A stretch of DNA of 64,000 bases, from the IMG/VR virus record IMGVR_UViG_3300025684_000012; one strand, written 5' to 3'. Origin of the DNA: a virus. The position numbers and the translations under genes were made by a program. The first letter of the stretch is position 1, and every line of letters begins with the position of its first letter. This document shows positions 4,057 through 41,315 of the stretch, piece by piece. The notes below the pieces were generated by a model, which worked only from the letters and a program-made list of their open reading frames with translations, ran no database searches and was not told where the DNA came from.

Positions 4057-5562
4057 TTATACTCCTAGGTCATCGTCATCAGCATCATCGCCATTGGCGT
4101 TCTCTGCTTCAACTTGTTTCTTCATTTCTTCGATGTCTTTATCATTCATCATCATTACGTTCTTCATTACCCACTCGCGAGAGAAGTACTCCCCAACGTA
4201 TTGTGTAACCTGATCCATAGTAGATAAGCGTTCACGCAATAACTCTGAGTCCTTCAATTCGGCAAAATGGTTATCGCGGACAAAGTCGACTTGGATATTA
4301 GCCTTCCAAGACTCCCAATCTTGCTCAGTACAAATCCCCTTGAGCAGTAATTGTTTTTTAAGTAATCCCAAAAATAGATGAGAGAACTTCCTGCGCAAGC
4401 GATCAATAAACTTTTGAAACTTAACTTCGTCGCGTCCAATTTCCGTTGTCCGCCCCAAAGAGAACTGAGATTCTTGTTCTAGTCTATTTAGAGGAACATT
4501 TAAAGAGCGATACAACTTCTTCTGAAAGTATAAAATGTCGTCAATTTGACCTAGATTCTCCCCGCCAGGAAGAGTACTAATCTCAGTACCTCTACCACCT
4601 TCACGGCGCGGAAGCCAAAAATCTTCGAGCATTGACATATGTTTACGGTCGTCTTTAATCTCGCCCGTATTAGCATCATATACTACCTTATTACGGTAGC
4701 GAGACATAATGTCTTTAATGTGCTGCTCAGCTTTACCTTTGGGCATATTGCCCACGTCAATATAAAATATGCGGCGTTCAGGCGCACGAGACATACGATA
4801 GATTACTAAAGAGTCTTCCATCATACGCAATTGATTGACTGGCTTAATAGCTTTATGTATGTAAGATATTACACGCTTTTTACTTGAATCTAGTAGGCCT
4901 GATGTAACATATGAGACTGAATCGGGGGTCAACTTAACGCCCTGACTCATCCCGGTCTTCTCTTGAAAGATAAAGAACTCGTTGGTCTTGTCTATAACTT
5001 TAGCGCCAGTCTTCTGGTCTTTCTTGTATTCAACTTCTTTGACTTTTCTAATCTTGCACCCATCAATCGTACGAATATCTTGAATACCAGCCTTGAGGTT
5101 GGACTCGTTCACTACGATGTGGTGATACATTCTACCGTCTACATACCAGCTGCGGAACATATCATGTCCGTGCTCTTCGAAGTTTAGTAGAGAATATATA
5201 TTTTCAAATTCTTCGATAATTATATCTTTAATGCGATCAGGCGCATCAACCTTGTCTAAGTTGACACTAACCGACGGCTCAAGCTCTGATGTTACTACCG
5301 CCTCATTAATAATATCTTCAATCGCCGCATCAACTTCCGGATGCTCAGCAACAGTACGATATTTACGAATGAGTTCGGCATTATCTCTGGCGGTAGTACC
5401 TTCAAGATCGACATATTGGGCAAAGTGCGAGCCTGATGCAGTAATATATCCTGCGCCATCCTCGTCAGCTTTAGGTACAATTGACGGAGTTTTTTTCTCG
5501 TCGGGTTTTTGTACTCGCTTGATTTCAAAACCGAACATTTGAAGTAAACTGTTATCTGCCAT
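4057..5562 (-). CDS. gp20: Portal vertex protein
   Basis: NQLRMMEDSLVIYRMSRAPERRIFYIDVGNMPKGKAEQ and EDFWLPRREGGRGTEISTLPGG. Confidence 0.98.
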   Translation of the reverse strand: MADNSLLQMFGFEIKRVQKPDEKKTPSIVPKADEDGAGYITASGSHFAQYVDLEGTTARDNAELIRKYRTVAEHPEVDAAIEDIINEAVVTSELEPSVSVNLDKVDAPDRIKDIIIEEFENIYSLLNFEEHGHDMFRSWYVDGRMYHHIVVNESNLKAGIQDIRTIDGCKIRKVKEVEYKKDQKTGAKVIDKTNEFFIFQEKTGMSQGVKLTPDSVSYVTSGLLDSSKKRVISYIHKAIKPVNQLRMMEDSLVIYRMSRAPERRIFYIDVGNMPKGKAEQHIKDIMSRYRNKVVYDANTGEIKDDRKHMSMLEDFWLPRREGGRGTEISTLPGGENLGQIDDILYFQKKLYRSLNVPLNRLEQESQFSLGRTTEIGRDEVKFQKFIDRLRRKFSHLFLGLLKKQLLLKGICTEQDWESWKANIQVDFVRDNHFAELKDSELLRERLSTMDQVTQYVGEYFSREWVMKNVMMMNDKDIEEMKKQVEAENANGDDADDDDLGV

Positions 5563-5578
5563 AAGATCCTCTAATAAT

Positions 5579-5609
5579 AAAACAGGGTGCTGAAGTCAAT
5601 CAGCACCCT
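5579..5609 (-). terminator. Stem-loop, probable terminator after the tail tube gene
   Basis: 10-bp perfect stem AGGGTGCTGA/TCAGCACCCT followed by a short T-rich tail on the minus strand; late-promoter variant TATAAGTA at 5612-5619 just upstream. Confidence 0.6.
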
Positions 5610-5625
5610 CTTACTTATACACCAA

Positions 5626-6150
5626 TTAACTAGTAGTTTCGGCTTCCCAATACTGAACCTGAAACTCAACAGTAAAGTCTTCCACCGTGTCTACGGTATC
5701 ATATAACAGATCAATCGCTGCCACGTTAGTTGGAAAGCATCCACGGAAATTGTATTTTTTCAATACAGAACCATCTTTGTCCAACTGCTCAACAATCAAG
5801 TCAGCTTGATAGTCATTTGGGTTGGTACGACCGACGTTCTCCGAGTGAGCATTCATACCGTTCATCCAACGTTCCATAGCATTGCGAACATTGAAATCTG
5901 TGTCGTTGATTACCGTCACCGTCCATGGTTCAAAAGTGCGATCACCCGCAACCTTCAACTGACGACCACGGAAAGGTACATCGATAAATCCAATAACCGA
6001 TGCTGGCAATTGAGCTCCCTTACACATGAATGATGTTAATTCAATATCACCACCCGCATACCCAGGAAAGTTGACAATGGCACGGAATAGATTCGGACGT
6101 GCACCGCCACCTTTCAATTTTGCTTTAAAGTCATCTACTCTTAAAGACAT
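5626..6150 (-). CDS. gp19: Tail tube protein
   Basis: GGARPNLF, FRGRQLKVAGDRTFEPWTVTVINDTDF and FPTNVAAIDL. Confidence 0.96.
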   Translation of the reverse strand: MSLRVDDFKAKLKGGGARPNLFRAIVNFPGYAGGDIELTSFMCKGAQLPASVIGFIDVPFRGRQLKVAGDRTFEPWTVTVINDTDFNVRNAMERWMNGMNAHSENVGRTNPNDYQADLIVEQLDKDGSVLKKYNFRGCFPTNVAAIDLLYDTVDTVEDFTVEFQVQYWEAETTS

Positions 6151-27796: not shown

Positions 27797-30700
27797 TTAG
27801 GCAACCCTTACATACAACGTATACGTCTCAACAATGTTGAACGTTGGCTGGATAGTCATACCAACATAGTTACCAACAAACGCTCGTGAGTAGTTGCCCA
27901 CGAAGTCTCGCGAGTAGTTTCCAGCATAGCCTCTGGCGTATGCCCCAACGTATTCACCTACATATGTTGATACACGGTTACGGGCATAATCATCGGTATA
28001 CGATGATGTACGCGCACGAGAGTATGCGCTAACGCGGGTGCGTGAGAATACATTAGTGTAGTTGCCTGTATATTCACCAGCAAATGCACGACTGTAGTTG
28101 CCTACATAATCCCCAACGAATCCGCGCGAATAGTTTCCGATATACTCGCCAGCAAAGCCACGAGAATAGTTTCCAGCGAATCCGCGAGTATAGTTACCAG
28201 AGTACTCACCAACAAATGTTCTGTTGTATGTGCCGGAGTATTCACCAACAAATGTTCTGCTGTAGTTACCTGCGTATTCACCAGCAAATGCACGACTGTA
28301 GTTGCCAACGAAGTCGCCGGTGTAGTTGCCCACATAATTACCTGTGTATTCACCAGCAAACGATCTAGCATAATTTCCAGTAAATGCTCTCGCATAATTG
28401 CCAACATAGTTACCTACGTATTCACCAGCAAACGATCTAGCATAGTTACCTGCGAAGGTACGAGCATAGTTGCCAATGAAGTTACCAGCAAAGTTCGTTA
28501 CACGATCTCTAGCGTAAGCACTAGAACGAGTACGAGCATAAGCTGAAACGCGAGTACGAACGTACGCGGAGTATCGAGTGCGCGTACTTGTACGTGTAAA
28601 GTCGCCAACGTAGTCTGTAATACGAGTACGAGCATATGCGCTACTACGGGTACGAACGCTTGTACGAACCGAAGTTCTAGCATACTCTCCAACAAAGTCA
28701 CCGACGAAATCCCCGATGTACGAGCTAACGCGAGTATAATACCCAGTACGTGTATAGTCCGCAACATAAGCTCTAGCGTAGTTGCCTACGAAGTTTCCTG
28801 CATAAACCAACGTACGAGCATAGTTGCCAACGAAGTCGCCAGTATAAGTTAACGTACGAGCATAATTACCTACGAAGTCGCCAGTATAAATTAACGTACG
28901 AGCATAGTTGCCAGTGTATGTTACTGCCCTAGTATAGTTTCCTACATAGCTAGCTGCGCGAACTCGAGTATACGCTGGATAGTAAGCACGATCACGAGAA
29001 TACGCTGGATAGTAAGCACGATCACGAGAATACGCTGGATAGTAAGCACGATCGCGTGAGTAACCTAGGACGGTGGTATAGTTAGTAGCTCTCGTCCTAG
29101 TATAATCATATGTTACATTACGAGCATAGTTCCCAGCGTATGTTACTGTGCGCGTGTATATTACAGTTCGCGAATAATATGTAGTGGCGGTTCGTGTGTA
29201 TATCTGAGGATCACCAGGATCTGGCCCTATTGGTGGACTTGGAGGACCAACGTAGTATGATGTTCCAGTTCTAGAGTACGACAGATTTCGCGAATAATAC
29301 CCTATAGCAGCCCTATTACGGGTATAAGCTACTGCACCAGTTCTAGTATAGTTACCTACGAAGTCACCAGTGTAAGTCAATGAACGAGCGTAGTTACCGG
29401 TATAGTAATATACACGAGCATAGTTGCCAGTATAGTATGCTACACGAGCATAGTTGCCAGTATAGTATGCTGTACGGGCATAGTCACCAGTGTAGCTCGC
29501 AGCTCGGGTACGCGTATAATCTAGCGTAGCGGCACGAGCGCGCGTGTATGATGGCGATATTGCATAGTCTGTAATACGTGTACGTGAATACGATGGCGAT
29601 ATTACATAGTTTGTAATACGTGTACGTGAATACGATGGACTCGTGGTGAAGTTGGTTACACGGTCACGGGTATAGGCAGTTGAATAGTTACCAGTATACG
29701 CTAGTACTCGAGTAAAGGTTAATGTCGCAGCGTCATCGCGCGTATAGTTCGTTACCCTGGTACGAGCATAGTTGCCTACGAAGTCGCCAACATAATCGCC
29801 GACAAACCCACGTGCATAGTTACCTACGAAGTCGCCAGTATATGTTGTGGCGTAATTACCGACAAAGTTACCAGCATAGCCGCGCGCGTAGTTACCAGCA
29901 AACCCGCGAGAGTAATCTCCTACGAAGTTGCGGCTATAGTTACCAATAAAGTTACCAGCAAAGTCGGTTACACGGTCACGGGCATACGCCGATGTGCGCG
30001 CGCGAGAGTATGCAGAGACCCGAGCACGGGAATACGTGCCAGTGTAGTCAGCAGAGTAAGTTGAAACGCGAGCTCGTGTATAAACAGATGCGCGTGCACG
30101 CGTGTATACGCCTGTGTAGTCGGCAGAAAATGCCGTGAGACGAGTACGAGCATATGTACTTACGCGATTGCGTGAATACGTGCCTGCATAGGCTGAGACG
30201 CGGTTACGCGAATATGTGCCAGCATAAGACGACACCCTATTACGAGCATACGTACCAGCATAGGCTGAGACTCGGTTACGCGAATATGTACTTACACGAT
30301 TGCGTGAATATGTGCCAGCGTAAGTCGAAATACGATTACGGGCATAGTTATCAGAATAAGCTGAAGAGCGTAAACGAGAATATACTCCTACGAAATCGCC
30401 AGTATATTCCCCTACAAAACCTCGTGAATAATTGCCGGCGAAGTCGCGGCTATAGTTACCAGCGTAATTGCCGACAAATACTTGGCTTGTAGTGCGTGAA
30501 TATGTACCACTAAAGGTAGACACTCTGTTACGCGTGTAGGCTGAAACTCGGGTCTGTACGTAGCTCGAGTTGCGGCTGCGCGTATAATCGATTTGAGCTG
30601 TCGTTAGCTTGGTGTTTACGGCTGTACCAACAACCTTCCACGTACCACCACCGATGGGTGCGCCTTGAGCTGAAGAAAGTAATTGATAGCTACCAATACT

Positions 30701-31366
30701 ACCAACTGACGATCTCAATGTCTTGATACGCTGACCCAACACGTCTTGGATCTCAGCATCAGTCATCTCTTGGAAGCCACCAAAGTTCGAGCCGTCGTAT
30801 CGTACGCGAACGGGACGAACAGCTCCAACGGCCGTCATTGAGTTACGAATATAGATGTGATAGTTTGTAGATACCCCATCCCCACGCGTGTCAGTGAAGA
30901 CGTTCGCTATATGGATAGAGTAATCTGATCCAGGTGAAGATGCTGCCAATCGATAGGTACCGATATAGTCATTCTGGACCATGTTACCGAGTACACGATT
31001 AGCTAAGTTGGATAAGTCCGCGTCTACCATTTCGTAGAAACCGGGATTAGGATCTTGGGCGTAGTAACCTACAGGAATGTTTTGGCCGCTTTCAGTTGCT
31101 GGTCCCGCTACCTGACGAAGGGTCGTAGTAGTTGAACCAGAAGTGATTTGGCTGGCAGGGTGAGTTCCGGGGCTCTGGTTGAAGTATGTATCAACATAAG
31201 AACCGACAGCAACTCCCGTTGGGCTAAGCGTTAGTGAACCAACATCAGTTGGGTTTAGTAATGCTTGTCCTACTGCATACGCCAGATAATTTTCTTCTAA
31301 CGGCGTAAATTCCTTCAGGTCACCATCTGAATTCAGTATTTTTAATGGGATACTAGATGCTGACAC
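27797..31366 (-). CDS. Tyr/Arg/Gly-rich self-complementary repeat protein (predicted giant beta-hairpin filament)
   Basis: 1189 aa, GTG start; globular N-terminal ~255 aa, then 4-residue-periodic YxRx / xGNY / RxRVS units mirrored about the Pro-rich turn GPPSPPIGPDPGDP. Confidence 0.85.
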   Translation of the reverse strand: MSASSIPLKILNSDGDLKEFTPLEENYLAYAVGQALLNPTDVGSLTLSPTGVAVGSYVDTYFNQSPGTHPASQITSGSTTTTLRQVAGPATESGQNIPVGYYAQDPNPGFYEMVDADLSNLANRVLGNMVQNDYIGTYRLAASSPGSDYSIHIANVFTDTRGDGVSTNYHIYIRNSMTAVGAVRPVRVRYDGSNFGGFQEMTDAEIQDVLGQRIKTLRSSVGSIGSYQLLSSAQGAPIGGGTWKVVGTAVNTKLTTAQIDYTRSRNSSYVQTRVSAYTRNRVSTFSGTYSRTTSQVFVGNYAGNYSRDFAGNYSRGFVGEYTGDFVGVYSRLRSSAYSDNYARNRISTYAGTYSRNRVSTYSRNRVSAYAGTYARNRVSSYAGTYSRNRVSAYAGTYSRNRVSTYARTRLTAFSADYTGVYTRARASVYTRARVSTYSADYTGTYSRARVSAYSRARTSAYARDRVTDFAGNFIGNYSRNFVGDYSRGFAGNYARGYAGNFVGNYATTYTGDFVGNYARGFVGDYVGDFVGNYARTRVTNYTRDDAATLTFTRVLAYTGNYSTAYTRDRVTNFTTSPSYSRTRITNYVISPSYSRTRITDYAISPSYTRARAATLDYTRTRAASYTGDYARTAYYTGNYARVAYYTGNYARVYYYTGNYARSLTYTGDFVGNYTRTGAVAYTRNRAAIGYYSRNLSYSRTGTSYYVGPPSPPIGPDPGDPQIYTRTATTYYSRTVIYTRTVTYAGNYARNVTYDYTRTRATNYTTVLGYSRDRAYYPAYSRDRAYYPAYSRDRAYYPAYTRVRAASYVGNYTRAVTYTGNYARTLIYTGDFVGNYARTLTYTGDFVGNYARTLVYAGNFVGNYARAYVADYTRTGYYTRVSSYIGDFVGDFVGEYARTSVRTSVRTRSSAYARTRITDYVGDFTRTSTRTRYSAYVRTRVSAYARTRSSAYARDRVTNFAGNFIGNYARTFAGNYARSFAGEYVGNYVGNYARAFTGNYARSFAGEYTGNYVGNYTGDFVGNYSRAFAGEYAGNYSRTFVGEYSGTYNRTFVGEYSGNYTRGFAGNYSRGFAGEYIGNYSRGFVGDYVGNYSRAFAGEYTGNYTNVFSRTRVSAYSRARTSSYTDDYARNRVSTYVGEYVGAYARGYAGNYSRDFVGNYSRAFVGNYVGMTIQPTFNIVETYTLYVRVA
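27860..30586 (-). repeat. Degenerate coding repeat array (12/24-bp base period with 30-bp and 42-bp tandem blocks)
   Basis: Tandem blocks YSRDRAYYPA x3, YTGNYARxxY x3-4, SPSYSRTRITNYxx x3 and YTGDFVGNYARTLx x3. Confidence 0.9.
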
Positions 31367-31579: not shown

Positions 31580-32047
31580 TTATGGTTGCATGGGCCATAC
31601 CAATTCCTCTAAACTAGCAGGGTTGTCTAATGTTGACGGAAAGTCGCGTAGTTGTTGTCTATATACTGCCCACGCCTGCTTTTCCTCTTCTGTTAATGGT
31701 GCATCGGGAGATTGAGTCCAATCCGATTTGTATAGTTTATTGTTACGTATACCCTTGATGTCGTTCATGAATGCCACAGCATCCCACTCCCAATCAGTAC
31801 CATTATATATAGCGTGACGATTTGGAGGTTTTCCTACATATACGAACGATGATCCATCCCAAAAATGCAGTAAGGGGTTCCAACCAGGGCCCATGAAGCC
31901 TTCTGTCATTCTATCAGGCGTCACGTGAACTGTGGTAATCCCATTTTCAGTACCTTCTGGTGGTACTGATGCTTGAGGAAATTCTACACACATGATACGG
32001 CCAGTATCTTCCTCAATTTTAGCTACATATTTTACTACTGTTGTCAT
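31580..32047 (-). CDS. Tail fibre assembly chaperone-like protein
   Basis: C-terminal RNNKLYKSDWTQSPDAPL....KQAWAVYRQQLRDFP...WP motif. Confidence 0.85.
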   Translation of the reverse strand: MTTVVKYVAKIEEDTGRIMCVEFPQASVPPEGTENGITTVHVTPDRMTEGFMGPGWNPLLHFWDGSSFVYVGKPPNRHAIYNGTDWEWDAVAFMNDIKGIRNNKLYKSDWTQSPDAPLTEEEKQAWAVYRQQLRDFPSTLDNPASLEELVWPMQP

Positions 32048-32065: not shown

Positions 32066-32782
32066 TTAAATTTGCTCAGCAATCCATATAGGACCATAAT
32101 TATCATAATAATACGTTGGTTCGAACCCCTGACCACCCGCTGGATCAGGTTCATCCTTATCCATATCTAGGTGGTATGCATTTTGAGTACCAGGCTGTGG
32201 GATTATGCAGGCTTTACTTCCTAAGGAATCCCAGTAAGTCCAGTCAGCGCTGATATATTTTGAGGCGTCCGTACTAATTGGATCGGAGCCATATCCATTA
32301 AGAGCCCTAGCTGGAATAATAGAATTAACGCGTAATCCAGCATTGAATTTAATTTTTCTAGAATCGAAGGCAGACTCCCCACCAGCCGTCAACACTTGTA
32401 AACCATACTCGCCAACCGCGGTTACATTTGTTACATCTTCCATAATAATATACTGGACGGATCTTAGGGCATACGCTTGATTCCAAGCAAACCCATCACG
32501 GTTATATGCTGCGTAGTCGGATGATACAAATTTCATAACTGGGCCACCGAGGGTACCGGCTAAAATAGCTACCTCGTCGTCTACTCCCTGTACATAGTTT
32601 CCGTTAGCGTCGGTATGGGGTCTAATGAACACTAATCTGTTTTTACCGTAACCGGAAACAGGTACCGACCACCCAGACCCCATGGCGGTGATAACATAGT
32701 TGACAAGCCCTCGCTCGGTATCAAGTTGGATAATCTCGTTACCGCCACCATCAAATGATTTAACAACTAATCCGTAACTCAT
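32066..32782 (-). CDS. Fibre-tip accessory protein
   Basis: Two YGL.V...G motifs (MSYGLVVKS, EYGLQVLTAGGESAFDSR), typical of proteins encoded after gpJ-like fibres. Confidence 0.6.
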   Translation of the reverse strand: MSYGLVVKSFDGGGNEIIQLDTERGLVNYVITAMGSGWSVPVSGYGKNRLVFIRPHTDANGNYVQGVDDEVAILAGTLGGPVMKFVSSDYAAYNRDGFAWNQAYALRSVQYIIMEDVTNVTAVGEYGLQVLTAGGESAFDSRKIKFNAGLRVNSIIPARALNGYGSDPISTDASKYISADWTYWDSLGSKACIIPQPGTQNAYHLDMDKDEPDPAGGQGFEPTYYYDNYGPIWIAEQI

Positions 32783-33633
32783 TATGCTATCCTCGCTGCT
32801 ATTATAACTGGAGCTGATGCGGTAGAGCGATCGTTTATCACTGTCAGTGTGTTGCCTGATACAGAATAGCTTATAGAAGTATACCTGAAACCAAACGCTA
32901 CAATAACTTTGGTAGGATCCCCTACATCTTCTATTGTAATATTTGTCGTTGAGTATGGTCCAACCGAAACACTACCGTAAAATACTAGGTTTAATACTCT
33001 AGTTGTAGGGTTGATAATTTCAGTTACACCATCTGGTCCATATACCACCAGACCATATTCAGCATCCGATGCTGGCGCACCAGTATACGTAGGAGGAGCT
33101 CCAGTACCACCAGAAATTGTACTAACACGAGTCGTAGTTCTTGTATAGTCGCCTACAGAAGTTCTGGTGAATGTTCCACTAAATGTGTTCGTAGAGCTTC
33201 TAGTATATAATCCGCTGTACCCCCTGGAATACACTCCTAGGAATGATCGGGCATAGTTACCGGCAAATAACCGCGAATATCCCCCAGCTGATGATACTGT
33301 ATAAAACCCTTGGTACGCTCTTGTGTAATACCCAATATAGTTTCTCGAGTAATACCCAATTGACTCTACGGTTCTAGATCTACTAAACGATCTAACATAA
33401 TTACCGGTGAAGTTTCCAATGAAATCGCCGACGAATGACCTAGAATAAAACGCAGTACTTTCGTTACCATCCTCAAAATTCGCATATGATATTAGTCGAG
33501 TACTAGCAGTACCTGCTCTAGTCCTAGTATAATCTACGACTCTTGGAGTACCTGAAAAGTCAGCTGTAGTGCCTCCTGTTCGGGTGCTAATTCTAGTAAA
33601 TGTGGAGGTTCTTGTATAATAGGATTCAGGCAT
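32782..33633 (-). CDS. Y/R/G repeat strand (residues 1-175) fused to a YGL-type fibre-tip domain
   Basis: N-terminal YSR/GNY repeats and C-terminal EYGLVVYGPDG; TAATG-coupled on both sides. Confidence 0.75.
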   Translation of the reverse strand: MPESYYTRTSTFTRISTRTGGTTADFSGTPRVVDYTRTRAGTASTRLISYANFEDGNESTAFYSRSFVGDFIGNFTGNYVRSFSRSRTVESIGYYSRNYIGYYTRAYQGFYTVSSAGGYSRLFAGNYARSFLGVYSRGYSGLYTRSSTNTFSGTFTRTSVGDYTRTTTRVSTISGGTGAPPTYTGAPASDAEYGLVVYGPDGVTEIINPTTRVLNLVFYGSVSVGPYSTTNITIEDVGDPTKVIVAFGFRYTSISYSVSGNTLTVINDRSTASAPVIIAARIA

Positions 33634-34169
33634 TACGGCTCAATCCCCCCATTAGGAGCGGTGAATAATATAGATGTTATTGTACCAGTACGCGATATAG
33701 TCCTACTGTAGGTCCCACCATAATAAGCCGTATACACCGCAGCAAAATATCCTTGACTACCCACTCTAGTGTAAAATGGGGTAAAGTATTGATATCTGGA
33801 AAATGAACGAACGAAAAGTCGAGAGCTCGTTACCGACGTTCGTGTTCTAGTAAAATTTTGTGTTCTGTCTCTGGTGTATGCAGAGACTCTAGAAACGGTG
33901 AACGTTCTAGTATAAGTCCCAGCAAATGATTGGGAATAATTACCCGCAAACGCTCTACTATAATACCCAGAAAAAGTTCTAACAAATGTTCCGGAATAAG
34001 TGCTTTGTCTATTCCTGGTATAGGTTGACGGGCGCAGTCGCGTAAAGGTTGCAGAAAATGTATTTGTTGTATCGGAGCTATACGAAGATACACGATTTCG
34101 AGTGAACGACGTTACGTAGTTCCCTGCGAATGATAATGTCCTTGTATACGATACTGTAAAATCAGCCAT
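33633..34169 (-). CDS. Y/R/G repeat protein, complementary to the next gene product
   Basis: 178 aa made largely of YTRxRxS and FAGNY units; AGGA RBS. Confidence 0.75.
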   Translation of the reverse strand: MADFTVSYTRTLSFAGNYVTSFTRNRVSSYSSDTTNTFSATFTRLRPSTYTRNRQSTYSGTFVRTFSGYYSRAFAGNYSQSFAGTYTRTFTVSRVSAYTRDRTQNFTRTRTSVTSSRLFVRSFSRYQYFTPFYTRVGSQGYFAAVYTAYYGGTYSRTISRTGTITSILFTAPNGGIEP

Positions 34170-34180
34170 TTTTTAATCCT

Positions 34181-35776
34181 TTATGCTAGCCGGCCAAATC
34201 TAACGCGGGGGTTACCACCAGCATCAAATATCTGCATTAAGTCATTAGTCATTGTCATGGACCCGGCCGTAGTACTAGAGCTTATATTTAGGGATCCTGT
34301 AACAGTAGCGTTTGATAGTAGAATCTGGTCACCGTCGACGGTAAATGGCCGAATAGCACTGTCCGATGAGTTTACTATAGCAAACTTATCAGCAAAGATG
34401 GACATAGCGGCAGTTTCGCCATTATTGTTAAATTCAATACCAGCTACATGACCATTAGCATCTAAGTTTAGAGTATACCCAACTTCAACACTAAGATCGA
34501 TACCGTCTATTCTAGTGTTGAGGGTCTGCTCGGCGGTTGCTACCGTATTATTAATCGTTTGTGTTAGTGATGTGGTTGCGTTCTGTACAGCTGTAGTGAG
34601 CTCTCCATCCGTAACATATGTATTTGATAATGTTGTCAACGCAGTTTGGACATCACTATCGATTTTGTTGTTAAGAGTTACCTCTAACTGGGAAATAGCA
34701 TTTAAATTGCCACTGTCGCCTGCTACAACTTCGGCTCTGAGATCGGACACCGCATCTGCAATTACATCGGTTAATGCCCCAGCGCTATCGAGTAACGTTA
34801 GCTTAGAGTTTAGGCTTGTTATTGATGCAGATACAACTCCGATTTTATCAGAGTTTGCGTAAATTCTAGTATATAAATCATCAGTAATACCACCCACTGC
34901 TGCAGCAACATCATCTGGGTTGATCTCTAATCCACTATCAATGGCATTTTGTAGAGTTACTTGGAAGCTATCAAACCGGCCGGATAGTACTTCAAGCTCA
35001 TCCGAGTTAGCTGTGGCAGATGCCACAAGATTGGAAATTGCTGTTGAATTAGCTTGTATTAGGGGGGATAATGTACTATCAAGTAATGATAGGTCAGCTG
35101 ATAAGTTCGTAACGGCCTGAGAGACAACACTGATCTCATCTGAGTTAGCATTTATTCTAGTATCTAATGTGGTGAGTGCGCCACCAATCGCTTGCACAAT
35201 TACTGCGGAATCCAATTCGATACTGCCAGTAAATTGAGCTTCTAAACTCACCAGATCCTGTGATAATACCTCAATGCCACTATCGAGCACAGATATCTGG
35301 GAAGTTAACCCACTATAAGCAGTCGACAGTGCTGATACATCTGAATCTAGATTAGTGTAGTTGGTTGATAGATTGGTATAGTCTTGGGCTAATAATACTA
35401 AGCCCCCTTCAACATTATCTACTCTAGCTACTAAGCCAGTCTCAGCTAATATACTGTAAAATTGACTCGAGTCTATAGAACCATCAAGATTCAAATTAAG
35501 TATTATGGATTGTATGAAATCCGAATCTATAATATTAATTATAGTACTTTGATCGAGGTAGTTATTGATAGTGTCGCTGTTTATGAATTGATTAATTACG
35601 CTACTGTCAATATAATTATTGATAATATTGTTGATGACATCGCTATCAATATAATTATTGATGGTATTGTTGATGGCATCGCTATCCGCCGTCCAGCTGA
35701 TAAGGTCGAAGTTTTCATTCATCTTATCAACAGCGGCGTTGATGTGATCAGCTAGATTGATTATTTGAAAAGCCAT
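34181..35776 (-). CDS. Coiled-coil fibre with gpJ/DUF1983-like C-terminal domain
   Basis: C-terminal LDANGHVAGI...IFADKFAI....RPFTVDG...IFDAGGNPRVRFG; N-terminal NNYIDSDVINNI repeats. Confidence 0.75.
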   Translation of the reverse strand: MAFQIINLADHINAAVDKMNENFDLISWTADSDAINNTINNYIDSDVINNIINNYIDSSVINQFINSDTINNYLDQSTIINIIDSDFIQSIILNLNLDGSIDSSQFYSILAETGLVARVDNVEGGLVLLAQDYTNLSTNYTNLDSDVSALSTAYSGLTSQISVLDSGIEVLSQDLVSLEAQFTGSIELDSAVIVQAIGGALTTLDTRINANSDEISVVSQAVTNLSADLSLLDSTLSPLIQANSTAISNLVASATANSDELEVLSGRFDSFQVTLQNAIDSGLEINPDDVAAAVGGITDDLYTRIYANSDKIGVVSASITSLNSKLTLLDSAGALTDVIADAVSDLRAEVVAGDSGNLNAISQLEVTLNNKIDSDVQTALTTLSNTYVTDGELTTAVQNATTSLTQTINNTVATAEQTLNTRIDGIDLSVEVGYTLNLDANGHVAGIEFNNNGETAAMSIFADKFAIVNSSDSAIRPFTVDGDQILLSNATVTGSLNISSSTTAGSMTMTNDLMQIFDAGGNPRVRFGRLA

Positions 35777-38900: not shown

Positions 38901-41315
38901 AACAGTATACTGAGAACCTGCTTCTGCAGTTAATCCAGATTTCAGTCTAAGTTTAATTGGTCCGTAATAATTATCACGCTGACCGCCATCAAACTCAAAT
39001 GACCCAGTAACGTCGTTACCTGAAGCATCAACGATCTGAACTAATTTGGTGCCATCAGCATAATCTAACGTGATAGCGGAGAGATCTAGGCTACTGGCCA
39101 ACGCTTGACGAGATACGGCATAATAGGTATAATTCTCGCCCGTAGTGCTTCCCTCTCCTTGAGTATAGTAACCGGTGTAGGTACTTGCTCTAGATCGGGT
39201 ATATGAGGAGCTACGCGTATAGTTTCCGACGAATGTACTTGCCCGGCCTGGACCAGAATAAGTGTTAGTTGCCATTCGGGTGAAAGGTAGCTCTAGAAAG
39301 TCAGGCTCACCTGGTCTAAGTTCAATCTCTAAAAATCTAGAGTATGATTCTTCTTCCACACGCGTAAAACCCGGCGCAGCGTAAATGCTGGCTCTGACCC
39401 TAGTAAAGTCTAGTGGTCGGACATAGTTACCTACGAAGTCTACATAATTTAGATTGGTAGATGTTGGAGCCGTAAAGGTAGTTGTAAACGTGGGCGTTTG
39501 AGTGCTTCCGCGAGTATACTGGAATCCTTCAGCATTAAGGGTAGTGATATCTGATGCACCACTAGCTGTAGTAATCAGCTCACCGTTCCACACAATACTT
39601 GCGGCTCCAGTTCTGTTTTCCACTCGCCACATTGTAGTACCCTGTATAAATGTTGGGCCTTGTACAGGGGCTACGCCGTCACCAATAGTAACATTTTCTG
39701 TTATAGTGACTGGGATTTTAGATCTAACCCTGGGGTTAGATGATTCAAAGTAATATGTGACTATGTATGGAGTCGAAGGCGTGAGCCCAGTAATTTTATT
39801 TGATGTTGTACTCCACCCAGTGGCAAGACCTACTCCAGTCTGGAATATTACGGGAAGATATGACCCATTAATAGTATCGGAAATTAGTATTTCACCAGAG
39901 CTGTTTGCCACAGCTTCGATTGTACGCTGTGAGGTAAAATTAGTATCAACAATACCTTGAGGACGTGAGTGAGGAAGTGGAAACAGTAACGTGTTGTCGA
40001 TTCCGCCAAGTAGGCCAGGAACTTTTAATGTGCACGAACCGCTCACTCCAGTGATAGTTGTTACGTCTCTGAAGTTAGACCCTACAGGCATTTGTATATT
40101 GAAAAGATAAAGCCTATATTCACCGCCTACGTTTTCAATAGCACGAACGTTTGCAGTCCCCCCATTACCCAAGCTAACTTGATCGAATGAGGTTAACTCG
40201 CTCAATCCGGTACTTTGGGTAGGGTCGATGATCACGTAATTACCGTATTGGGCTATTACGCTATCATTGTTTACGGTACCGGTCGCACGAGCGCGCCCGA
40301 CATCTAAATTAGTAGTACCGAAGTCTAATCGGTAGCCATCGACATAAGCAGTTCCTGGGGTGACCTCTAGATTTAGAGTTAGATCATCCTTGTCCTGCAT
40401 TATTGTTTTGAATTCGCGGGCTACATAATCCCCCGATTCTTCTTTGGTACGAGTAGCGAGTAAGTCGTTAATGATATTATAATCATCTTTAGCGTCAACT
40501 TCACGCGTGATTACCCCATTGACAATCCGAGCTACAAACACAAAGTTTTCTTCCTCTGTGAGAGCGTCGCGGGTAGTGGGAGTCAATTCAATCTTGTATC
40601 GGTGAGCACCTGGGGCTGCGGTGTTTGGAAAAGCACCCTGATTATCGTATAGAGTAACGTCTTCTCCTTCCGTAATAACACTTTCCACTACTTGGAATCC
40701 AAAGTCCACGGTTGGCTTGGAATTATACTTGTCGATGTAAGTTGATTGCTGAGGAGAGTGAACGAAATGGCCAGCAACGAAGAAAACTCCTTCGTTGACG
40801 GATATACTAGTTCCAGTACCCACAGCAGGAACGTCTCCATCTAAAGCTACGGTAAGAGGAAAGGTTGTAGCTCCTACGGGCGTTAATATCTCGCTTGGGT
40901 TGACGCGTGCAGGAACACTCGTGTCAACTACTGCAGAGGTGTCGACGTATCTAACATATAATGTTTGAGGATCTACATCAGTAGCTTCATGGTACTCTTC
41001 TACCATGAACTTGATTCCCTGCGCATTTTGGTACTGTTGTCCTACAATATTCTCGGGCACCAGAGTACCAGCTTGCAGCCGGATATACTCTTTAGAGTTG
41101 TCGATTATTGAGCCACCAGCTTTAACTGTGGCTCCTTCACGAAAGATGTTACGTCCAAACCGCGCTATCTCTTCATGGAGTATAGTCTGCAGCTCATTTA
41201 GTTCGCGAGCTTGTAGTGCTTTACCTGAATTGAATAAAACACGATGATAACCGCTTTCTTTATCATAAAAGTCACGATATGTTTCTTTAAATGTCTTACT
41301 GGTGAAATTGCTCAT
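35979..41315 (-). CDS. Large baseplate-associated virion protein (DUF4815/VrlC-like)
   Basis: YHRVLFNSGKALQARELNELQ, APGAHRYKI, RT.EESGDY, LDFRP, RFTMQDIAKLEDRI, PFMRSR and DPLAQTF. Confidence 0.88.
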   Translation of the reverse strand: MSNFTSKTFKETYRDFYDKESGYHRVLFNSGKALQARELNELQTILHEEIARFGRNIFREGATVKAGGSIIDNSKEYIRLQAGTLVPENIVGQQYQNAQGIKFMVEEYHEATDVDPQTLYVRYVDTSAVVDTSVPARVNPSEILTPVGATTFPLTVALDGDVPAVGTGTSISVNEGVFFVAGHFVHSPQQSTYIDKYNSKPTVDFGFQVVESVITEGEDVTLYDNQGAFPNTAAPGAHRYKIELTPTTRDALTEEENFVFVARIVNGVITREVDAKDDYNIINDLLATRTKEESGDYVAREFKTIMQDKDDLTLNLEVTPGTAYVDGYRLDFGTTNLDVGRARATGTVNNDSVIAQYGNYVIIDPTQSTGLSELTSFDQVSLGNGGTANVRAIENVGGEYRLYLFNIQMPVGSNFRDVTTITGVSGSCTLKVPGLLGGIDNTLLFPLPHSRPQGIVDTNFTSQRTIEAVANSSGEILISDTINGSYLPVIFQTGVGLATGWSTTSNKITGLTPSTPYIVTYYFESSNPRVRSKIPVTITENVTIGDGVAPVQGPTFIQGTTMWRVENRTGAASIVWNGELITTASGASDITTLNAEGFQYTRGSTQTPTFTTTFTAPTSTNLNYVDFVGNYVRPLDFTRVRASIYAAPGFTRVEEESYSRFLEIELRPGEPDFLELPFTRMATNTYSGPGRASTFVGNYTRSSSYTRSRASTYTGYYTQGEGSTTGENYTYYAVSRQALASSLDLSAITLDYADGTKLVQIVDASGNDVTGSFEFDGGQRDNYYGPIKLRLKSGLTAEAGSQYTVIFQHYFHGDGDYFSVESYPTIYSNVPSYKTSSGDTIQLTDVLDFRPVILADGIQSSSINTLPRNKSIISVDATYYLPRIDLLVANTLDSRGRLGTGRLQIIEGEAALDPRPPQVPVGSLSLFQIDLNAYTADKNDLSTTRIPHKRFTMQDIAKLEDRIDTLFELTTLSLLEADTATLAVLDELGNNRTKSGFIADNFRSLNFCDLNNPDYRASVEPTSGELMPSFRENSVRLAMRQSSAVKKGDVAVLPHVNTLLASQLLATGRMNINPFAVITQTGHMTLSPATDEWVEVRQLPEIMQSNVRRTSTDRTGGGRGGRVTSRIVETTIQEFLGEQVVDVEVVPFMRSREVYFRVEGLRPKTRMFAFFGNQSVQPWVRQENVFRLFSDNPRESGSEFASASGHPNGSTELVTDDNGVLIGSFFVPNTPSMSFRTGQQEFKLLDVSINDDDMAISSSRANYESVGRIDAVQRTIRSTRIVETISERIDPLAQTFFIDQVENPNGLFLTHVKVFMESKDSAIPLQVQIRPVENGIPTTRIVPGSNKFVSPSNINVVPLTPDTDIADVRLFGGTDIDFDEPVYLTPGEEYAIVLLAESVEYNAYVAETYEFILGPNQREGRVDKQPTLGSLFLSQNGSTWTPDQTRDLMFELYRAEFDTTANVVLSNTEVPKITLGPNPISVEKNSALVNIAHQGHGFNANDEVEISGVQGTIGGIPAASLNSTHLIASVSWEGYQINVGTVATASVLGGGSSVVASEQIMIDEMTPNIANITPNGTRITATVTQTSGASFGGNRNNPLYNGAYSSVGSKQVFINDLNLNDRPTIIASPDDMTFNITLSTTDTKVSPLIDLQRVSVMTLENVIDMGTAAQHITTPVILDESAVGLKILFSAHRPSTVEFEVYVKTAADESSLEVSEWVLVDADNNIPSDESRNVFREYSYTIDTDDQFNIFQARVVMQSTNSSKIPIISDFRTIALAV

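Follow-up and report, generated by a model that had tools for sequence, protein, structure and literature searches.

The 64,000-nucleotide DNA of the IMG/VR virus record IMGVR_UViG_3300025684_000012 (hereafter the window, meaning this whole stretch) carries the tail/baseplate module of an uncultured marine T4-like cyanophage of Kyanoviridae-like type. Within it are two adjacent minus-strand genes, A and B, which were examined here because an original prediction had described them as a single protein hairpin split into two complementary chains. Reading along the minus strand, a VrlC/DUF4815 baseplate protein (1778 residues) is followed by a 66-residue protein, a 531-residue tip fiber protein, A, B, a 238-residue protein starting with MSYGL, a tail fiber chaperone, and a 1189-residue repeat protein. 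The coordinates originally given for A and B were correct, and the TAATG overlap of stop and start codons is present at their junction (Table 1). The closest GenBank record is that of phage C48C1 (Kyanoviridae), with 46% identity over VrlC; blastn of the region found no match among GenBank phages, and tblastn matched C48C1 only.

Table 1. Genes and protein segments of the A/B locus, with coordinates in the window (aa, amino acid residues).
Feature	Coordinates	Strand	Description
Gene A	33633..34169	minus	Open reading frame; 178-aa repeat protein; no Pfam or PHROG family
A arm, aa 14-110	33840..34130	minus	Strict period-4 [FY/R]-x-[R/G/S]-x; 'N-arm type', RxR-rich and Gly-poor
A C-terminal aperiodic region, aa 111-178 (68 aa)	33636..33839	minus	Conserved in the alignment; candidate half of a distal cap
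TAATG stop/start overlap, A/B	33631..33635	minus	
Gene B	32782..33633	minus	283 aa; repeat arm and C-terminal beta-sandwich ('YGL') domain
B N-terminal aperiodic region, aa 1-62	33448..33633	minus	Conserved; may supply the second half of a distal cap
B arm, aa 63-166	33136..33447	minus	Strict period-4 [YF]-x-[G/R]-x; 'C-arm type', Gly-rich
B hinge, aa 167-190	33064..33135	minus	Conserved ...TRxST(I/L)SGG(S/T)G..PTYT; invariant alignment columns
B C-terminal domain	32785..33063	minus	Small beta-sandwich; confident model from about aa 205
Tail tip fiber protein, upstream of A	34181..35776	minus	531 aa; PF09327, E=2e-6; phrog_2589 'tail protein'; synteny conserved
Protein downstream of B	32066..32782	minus	238 aa; N-terminus MSYGLVV; synteny conserved
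Tail fiber assembly chaperone	31580..32047	minus	155 aa; PF16778, E=6e-18
1189-aa protein	27797..31366	minus	A/B-type repeat as two mirror-symmetric arms; Pro-rich turn at about aa 706-722
Insertion, aa 543-726 of the VrlC/DUF4815 baseplate protein	39138..39689	minus	184 aa; holds the A/B-type repeat

Orthologs of B were found in 16 cases, and the genomic context was examined for 12 of these. An A-like gene lay directly upstream of B in ten loci and in the window (n = 11), and in each the two were separate adjacent genes, with A orthologs ranging from 151 to 196 residues. The junctions consisted of either TAATG or a spacer of 2-10 nucleotides, and the frame of B relative to A varied. Since separate genes with differing junctions and frames recur across the orthologs, the split between A and B is genuine. 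An assembly error at the junction, which the original prediction had raised as a possible artefact, is ruled out by the recurrence of the same split in independent assemblies with different junction sequences, and a conserved frameshift or readthrough fusing A to B is ruled out by the differing frames of B. At two loci (positions 4476-5831 of both L004 and L007) B lies in the frame of A, separated from it by TAG and two codons, and readthrough there would give an A-B fusion; this in-frame arrangement is not conserved in other lineages.

The length of A was found to be strongly correlated with the position of the SGGSG motif in B across the 11 syntenic loci (r = 0.987, slope 1.02). Phylogenetically independent contrasts, for which the tree was built from three concatenated conserved flanking segments, gave r = 0.989 (n = 10, p ≈ 9e-9) and a slope of 1.05. 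The tip fiber and downstream genes of the 11 loci showed no length tracking with either A or B. Individual events could also be recognized. Compared to its relative L003, locus L005 has a 41-residue insertion in A and a 40-residue insertion in B, and L008 has lost 23 residues of A and 24 residues of B compared to L002. L004 carries a 24-residue tandem duplication in A (residues 43-90) and also in B (residues 73-120). Three of the length classes were found again in independent samples. The new matches from a metagenome scan were replicates of known lineages only, and a word-based homolog search for A returned one protein.

In C48C1 the A gene is absent, and the equivalent of B is a 112-residue YGL domain alone, indicating that the B arm and A come and go together. 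A and B share no repeat at the DNA level that might cause them to change in concert. The arms differ in composition, with an RxR-rich and Gly-poor A arm set against a Gly-rich B arm in 10 of the 11 orthologs. By their 1:1 covariation, their paired indels, the paired duplication of L004, and arm compositions like those of the two arms of the 1189-residue protein, A and B are real separate genes acting as two halves of one length-matched structure, which upholds this part of the original prediction.

In a position profile of the repeat in the window's A and B, an aromatic slot, filled by Tyr or Phe and sometimes by Arg, alternates with a Gly/Arg/Ser slot, with small or polar residues at the two positions in between. 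The aromatics stay in one phase, with zero slip, over residues 14-106 of A (mod 4 = 2) and over residues 63-163 of B (mod 4 = 3). Glycines are spaced by 4 or 8 residues and not, as in collagen-like fibers, by three; His is absent from A and from residues 1-180 of B. The original prediction had aligned the two chains antiparallel and end to end, residue i of A facing residue j of B at i+j=179, and all of the pairs it listed do face one another as described (12 of 12 B glycines, 5 of 5 A glycines, and 5 of 5 aromatic-Arg pairs). However, because each arm holds a constant phase, any register c (the sum i+j) equal to 3 mod 4 sets aromatics facing Gly or Arg. Beyond this shared phase, at c=179 the periodic part of A (14-110) falls exactly on the periodic part of B (165-69), and the 68-residue aperiodic tail of A (111-178), which does not follow the pair code, falls on a 68-residue aperiodic head of B. 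All five Arg residues in the aromatic slot of A face a B Gly at c=179, the sole such register within ±40; with n=5 sites, this match is no more than suggestive.

The same type of repeat forms two mirrored arms in cis in the 1189-residue protein, as is evident from a unique best register, a mirrored order of units, and the facing of Arg to Gly. The best register was c=1430, which scored 153 versus at most 131 for any other. In the inner irregular part, three 14-residue units face three 14-residue units and three 10-residue units face three 10-residue units, in mirrored order. The aromatic-slot Arg residues of the N-arm face Gly in 17 of 17 cases at c=1430, in 16 at c=1422, and in 3-11 at other registers. 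Facing pairs at c=1430 distinguish Tyr from Phe, with 23 R-Y pairs versus 1 R-F pair and 13 S-F pairs versus 1 S-Y pair. A DNA palindrome as the origin of the mirror pattern was rejected, as inverted repeats of note were absent. The facing residues of this protein provided a set of five pair rules (Y:R, Y:G, R:G, F:S, and F:T), by which c=1430 scored 170 and the runner-up 123; full log-odds pair matrices from the same protein proved too noisy and biased to short overlaps, and the five-pair rules were used instead. Gene product A resembles the N-arm of the 1189-residue protein in being RxR-rich and Gly-poor, and B resembles its Gly-rich C-arm.

When the cis-derived rules were applied to the A/B pairs, the end-to-end antiparallel register was the clear winner in four orthologs, L004 (44 versus 34), L007 (40 versus 33), L010 (40 versus 34), and L012 (40 versus 35), with z values against tetrad shuffles of 4.4, 4.0, 4.5, and 2.4, respectively. 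In all four, antiparallel A×B pairing scored above both parallel and homotypic pairing. The deletions of L008 likewise lie closer to the antiparallel prediction (B 132-160) than to the parallel one (B 70-98). The end-to-end antiparallel arrangement originally proposed is thus the best-fitting geometry and has a clear register in these four orthologs, but its register is not singled out in the window's own pair.

The above considerations make it probable, if only just, that the A and B arms co-assemble laterally, most likely antiparallel, and we infer from them a physical pairing of the two chains in beta conformation. A and B would be structural proteins of the tail-fiber module, each having an arm of approximately 100 residues built from a period-4 beta-strand repeat, one face of which would carry the aromatic and Gly/Arg/Ser slots in alternation and the other small or polar residues. 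With the arms side by side and most probably antiparallel, the conserved N-terminus of A would lie beside the SGGSG hinge and C-terminal beta-sandwich of B, and the last 68 residues of A together with the first 68 of B could form a two-chain cap at the far end. A and B may in this way represent the cis hairpin of the 1189-residue protein cut at its turn into two genes. Loose facing rules (Tyr against Arg or Gly, Phe against Ser or Thr, and slot-Arg against Gly) would fix the phase of the strands, and register and partner choice would depend mainly on the end domains and on arms of matching length. A lone dimer and a trimer of A/B pairs are equally likely. We further suggest, tentatively, that phages of this group have a new type of shaft, in which very long beta ribbons of two antiparallel strands, either single or in bundles, are held by the facing code Tyr:Arg, Tyr:Gly, Arg:Gly, and Phe:Ser/Thr; a ribbon would be made either from one chain (1189-3347 residues) or from two genes, as in A/B, that would have to change in lock-step. 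Were such ribbons real, each duplication or deletion of a repeat unit in one gene would be matched in the other.

A number of observations weigh against antiparallel pairing of A with B. In the window's own pair the code is without register or partner information. Antiparallel A×B scores were 38 at both c=179 and c=187 and 36 at c=163, 171, and 183, and shuffling the B tetrads with the phase kept gave 36.5±1.8 at c=179 compared to the observed 38. The same pair score reached 46 for B×B antiparallel and 45 for B×B parallel, with 33 for A×B parallel. By the five-pair rules, offsets of +8, -8, and 0 were nearly equal in the window pair (35, 33, and 32), with z of 1.7. The pairs at i+j=179, taken originally as specific recognition of A by B, are therefore explained by the shared period-4 phase, and the proposed sequence-programmable recognition akin to base pairing is overstated for the window pair, because its register is degenerate modulo 8. 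Five to six orthologs also lacked an order-specific signal. In the tree of concatenated segments, L004, L007, and L010 fall outside a single clade (L004 groups with L002), yet they have RxR at identical positions of their A arms, so that the three register signals may not be independent. The orientation test from indel positions rests on two events in repetitive sequence. The A proteins of L005 and L008 each slip in phase by one residue with no counterpart in B, and strict residue-by-residue pairing would thus need a bulge.

Two contigs in which one gene replaces A and B also weigh against such pairing. That encoding P0008 (220 residues; L013 2426-3088) joins approximately the first 26 residues of A to a B arm, leaving one short arm; that encoding P0016 (384 residues; L009 4092-5246) has an A-like start, a globular insert in place of the A tail and B head, and a B-like end, its arms being unequal. 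These single-gene forms argue against an obligate two-chain design, each coming from one short contig for which chimeric assembly is possible. P0008 has the appearance of a recombination between the 'SFSRTR' words of A and B.

Both single-chain forms link an A-like N-terminus to a B-like C-terminus, as would be anticipated if A and B were instead separate homo-oligomeric, probably trimeric, rods joined in series from the C-terminus of A to the N-terminus of B in the manner of the T4 gp34-gp37 long tail fiber, with equal lengths selected by fold-back at a knee or by a need for equal span. Phage fibers are generally known to be homotrimers, both A and B are conserved and aperiodic at the end nearest the junction, and B×B and A×A pairings score equal to A×B in most orthologs. 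Nevertheless, we consider such a serial fiber unlikely. Nothing known would force 1:1 residue covariation with matched 40-residue and 24-residue indels, and the asymmetry between RxR-rich and Gly-rich arms and the register-specific A×B complementarity of L004, L007, and L010 would be left unexplained.

Length covariation and co-extensive periodic segments would also fit arms running in the same direction, A 14-110 beside B 63-165, in a mixed beta-helix or sheet of, for example, A2B or AB2 composition, and an octapeptide period with one Gly recalls triple beta-helices such as T4 gp5C. Yet the best parallel A×B score by the stricter code fell below the antiparallel score in 11 of 11 pairs, and the L008 deletions are about 40 residues away from where a parallel hetero-oligomer would place them. 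The equality of A length with B pre-hinge length and the 68/68 aperiodic ends would also have to be coincidence, and the unit order of the 1189-residue protein is mirrored, not repeated; we regard the parallel arrangement as improbable. We give an equally small chance to A and B having no direct contact, serving as independent fibers or decorations, or docking on the 1189-residue protein or the VrlC insertion, under a shared external ruler. The module does contain the same repeat at three further sites, and viral contigs contain at least 373 stretches of it; with so degenerate a code the arms could be promiscuous. On the other hand, the module has no other gene whose length follows that of A or B, and A is present or missing along with the B arm.

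Searches of A and B against Pfam (E≤0.1) and PHROGs (E≤0.01) returned no family, and phmmer and hmmsearch against PDB sequences (E≤10) returned nothing relevant for A/B, gp37 chains included. In the literature searched on the repeat, on C48C1, and on related terms, we found no description of the repeat family. Complex prediction for A with B(1-190), using alignments, gave an interface score (ipSAE, interaction prediction score from aligned errors) of 0.02-0.03 and no usable model of the arms, a result that speaks neither for nor against pairing. The AlphaFold2 model of B, made with 22 sequences, had a predicted local distance difference test score (pLDDT) below 50 over residues 1-193 and above 90 over approximately residues 205-283, and that of P0016, made with no alignment, was unusable (pLDDT 33). 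The ESM Atlas model of A had a pLDDT of 0.21, and its closest clusters were unnamed viral proteins. The last ~75 residues of B are confidently predicted to fold into a small beta-sandwich. With residues 213-283, Foldseek returned the Sf6 tailspike at E=0.07, and VIA-align the receptor-binding domain of the Pam1 tailspike (Z 6.3, root-mean-square deviation 2.8, 64 aligned residues), with which unrelated beta-sandwiches tie. At Z ~6, the modeled fold is weakly like domains found at the C-terminus of tailspikes and pyocin fibers.

Several known systems can be compared with A and B. In phage T4, the long tail fiber has a distal needle formed by a trimer of gp37, which was reportedly described by Bartual and colleagues in 2010. 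The needle domain of gp37 contains iron sites (PMC6957217). As in the arrangement proposed for A and B, the gp37 chain runs out along the shaft to a tip domain and back, with its N-side and C-side strands antiparallel in one thin rod, and the setting is likewise a T4-like phage with a fiber chaperone gene nearby. Unlike A/B, gp37 consists of a single chain in which iron sites of the His-x-His type hold the strands, whereas A and B have no His, use aromatic, Arg, and Gly slots, share no sequence similarity with gp37, and would form the outward and return strands from two gene products. Nearer at hand, the 1189-residue protein and its 3347-residue homolog in C48C1 share with A/B the period-4 repeat in constant phase, the pair rules, and the asymmetry of N- and C-arms. 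The 1189-residue protein differs in that a single chain makes up both arms, each of approximately 445 residues, and a Pro-rich turn, and its mirror symmetry is clear, unlike that of the window's A/B pair.

Cross-strand aromatic-glycine pairs in antiparallel beta-sheets, termed aromatic rescue of glycine, are said to have been studied by Merkel and Regan in 1998, and Tyr-Arg cation-pi pairs in antiparallel sheets are familiar from studies of beta-hairpin peptides. The favored facing pairs of A/B, Tyr:Gly and Tyr:Arg, are thus pairs known to stabilize adjacent antiparallel strands. The known cases are isolated ones in globular proteins and short peptides, whereas here such pairs would recur along one ribbon from ~25 times (A/B) to ~110 times (the 1189-residue protein). 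The C-terminal needle of T4 gp5 is a triple-stranded beta-helix, a parallel homotrimer with the octapeptide VxGxxxxx. A and B resemble it in their eight-residue sub-period with one Gly and in their phage tail setting, but gp5C lacks the aromatic/Arg alternation, the mirrored arm order, and the two-gene form, and the mirrored cis order and better antiparallel scores argue against a gp5C-like structure for A/B. In the serial multi-protein fiber made up of T4 gp34, gp35, gp36, and gp37, as at the A/B locus, adjacent fiber genes are served by a dedicated chaperone, and the products are joined at their ends; to our knowledge, residue-for-residue length covariation between segments of this type has not been described.

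The length covariation stands whatever the exact geometry. If the arms do pair, A and B would show how two genes in nature are bound to equal repeat number, and their fiber architecture would be one that Pfam, PHROGs, and the PDB lack and that is beyond current structure predictors. From such pairing, protein designers would also gain a minimal code of facing residues for building long beta ribbons, and phage biologists a handle on the large unannotated repeat proteins encoded in hundreds of marine viral contigs.

Examination of the rest of the module and of related sequences gave several further observations. The 184-residue repeat insertion of VrlC is missing from the C48C1 homolog. A small module of the form W-R/E-V...I-x-W/V-N-G...S-G-x-S...Y-T/x-R could be recognized by eye alongside the repeat in the VrlC insertion, at approximately residues 119-190 in the center of P0016, and in a giant protein of C48C1 (L001 11012-21055). 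The 238-residue protein downstream of B has a short, weak N-terminal match to the B C-terminal domain by BLASTP. At the end of its C48C1 counterpart (L001 9362-10405), a long (Pro-Glu/Pro-Gln/Pro-Ala)n tract leads into poly-Gly; the protein of the window has no such tract. Repeat words such as [YF][VT]G[DN][FY][IV]G[ND][FY] matched the IMG/VR stretches counted above, all of them confirmed and located mostly within very large repeat proteins; among GenBank phage records, repeat words were found in C48C1 only. The YGL beta-sandwich of the type found in B also occurs in stand-alone proteins of 96-112 residues (P0022, and C48C1 L001 9043-9381) and in tandem in metagenomic proteins, with 14 stretches in P0019 (2447 residues) and 9 in P0021 (826 residues).

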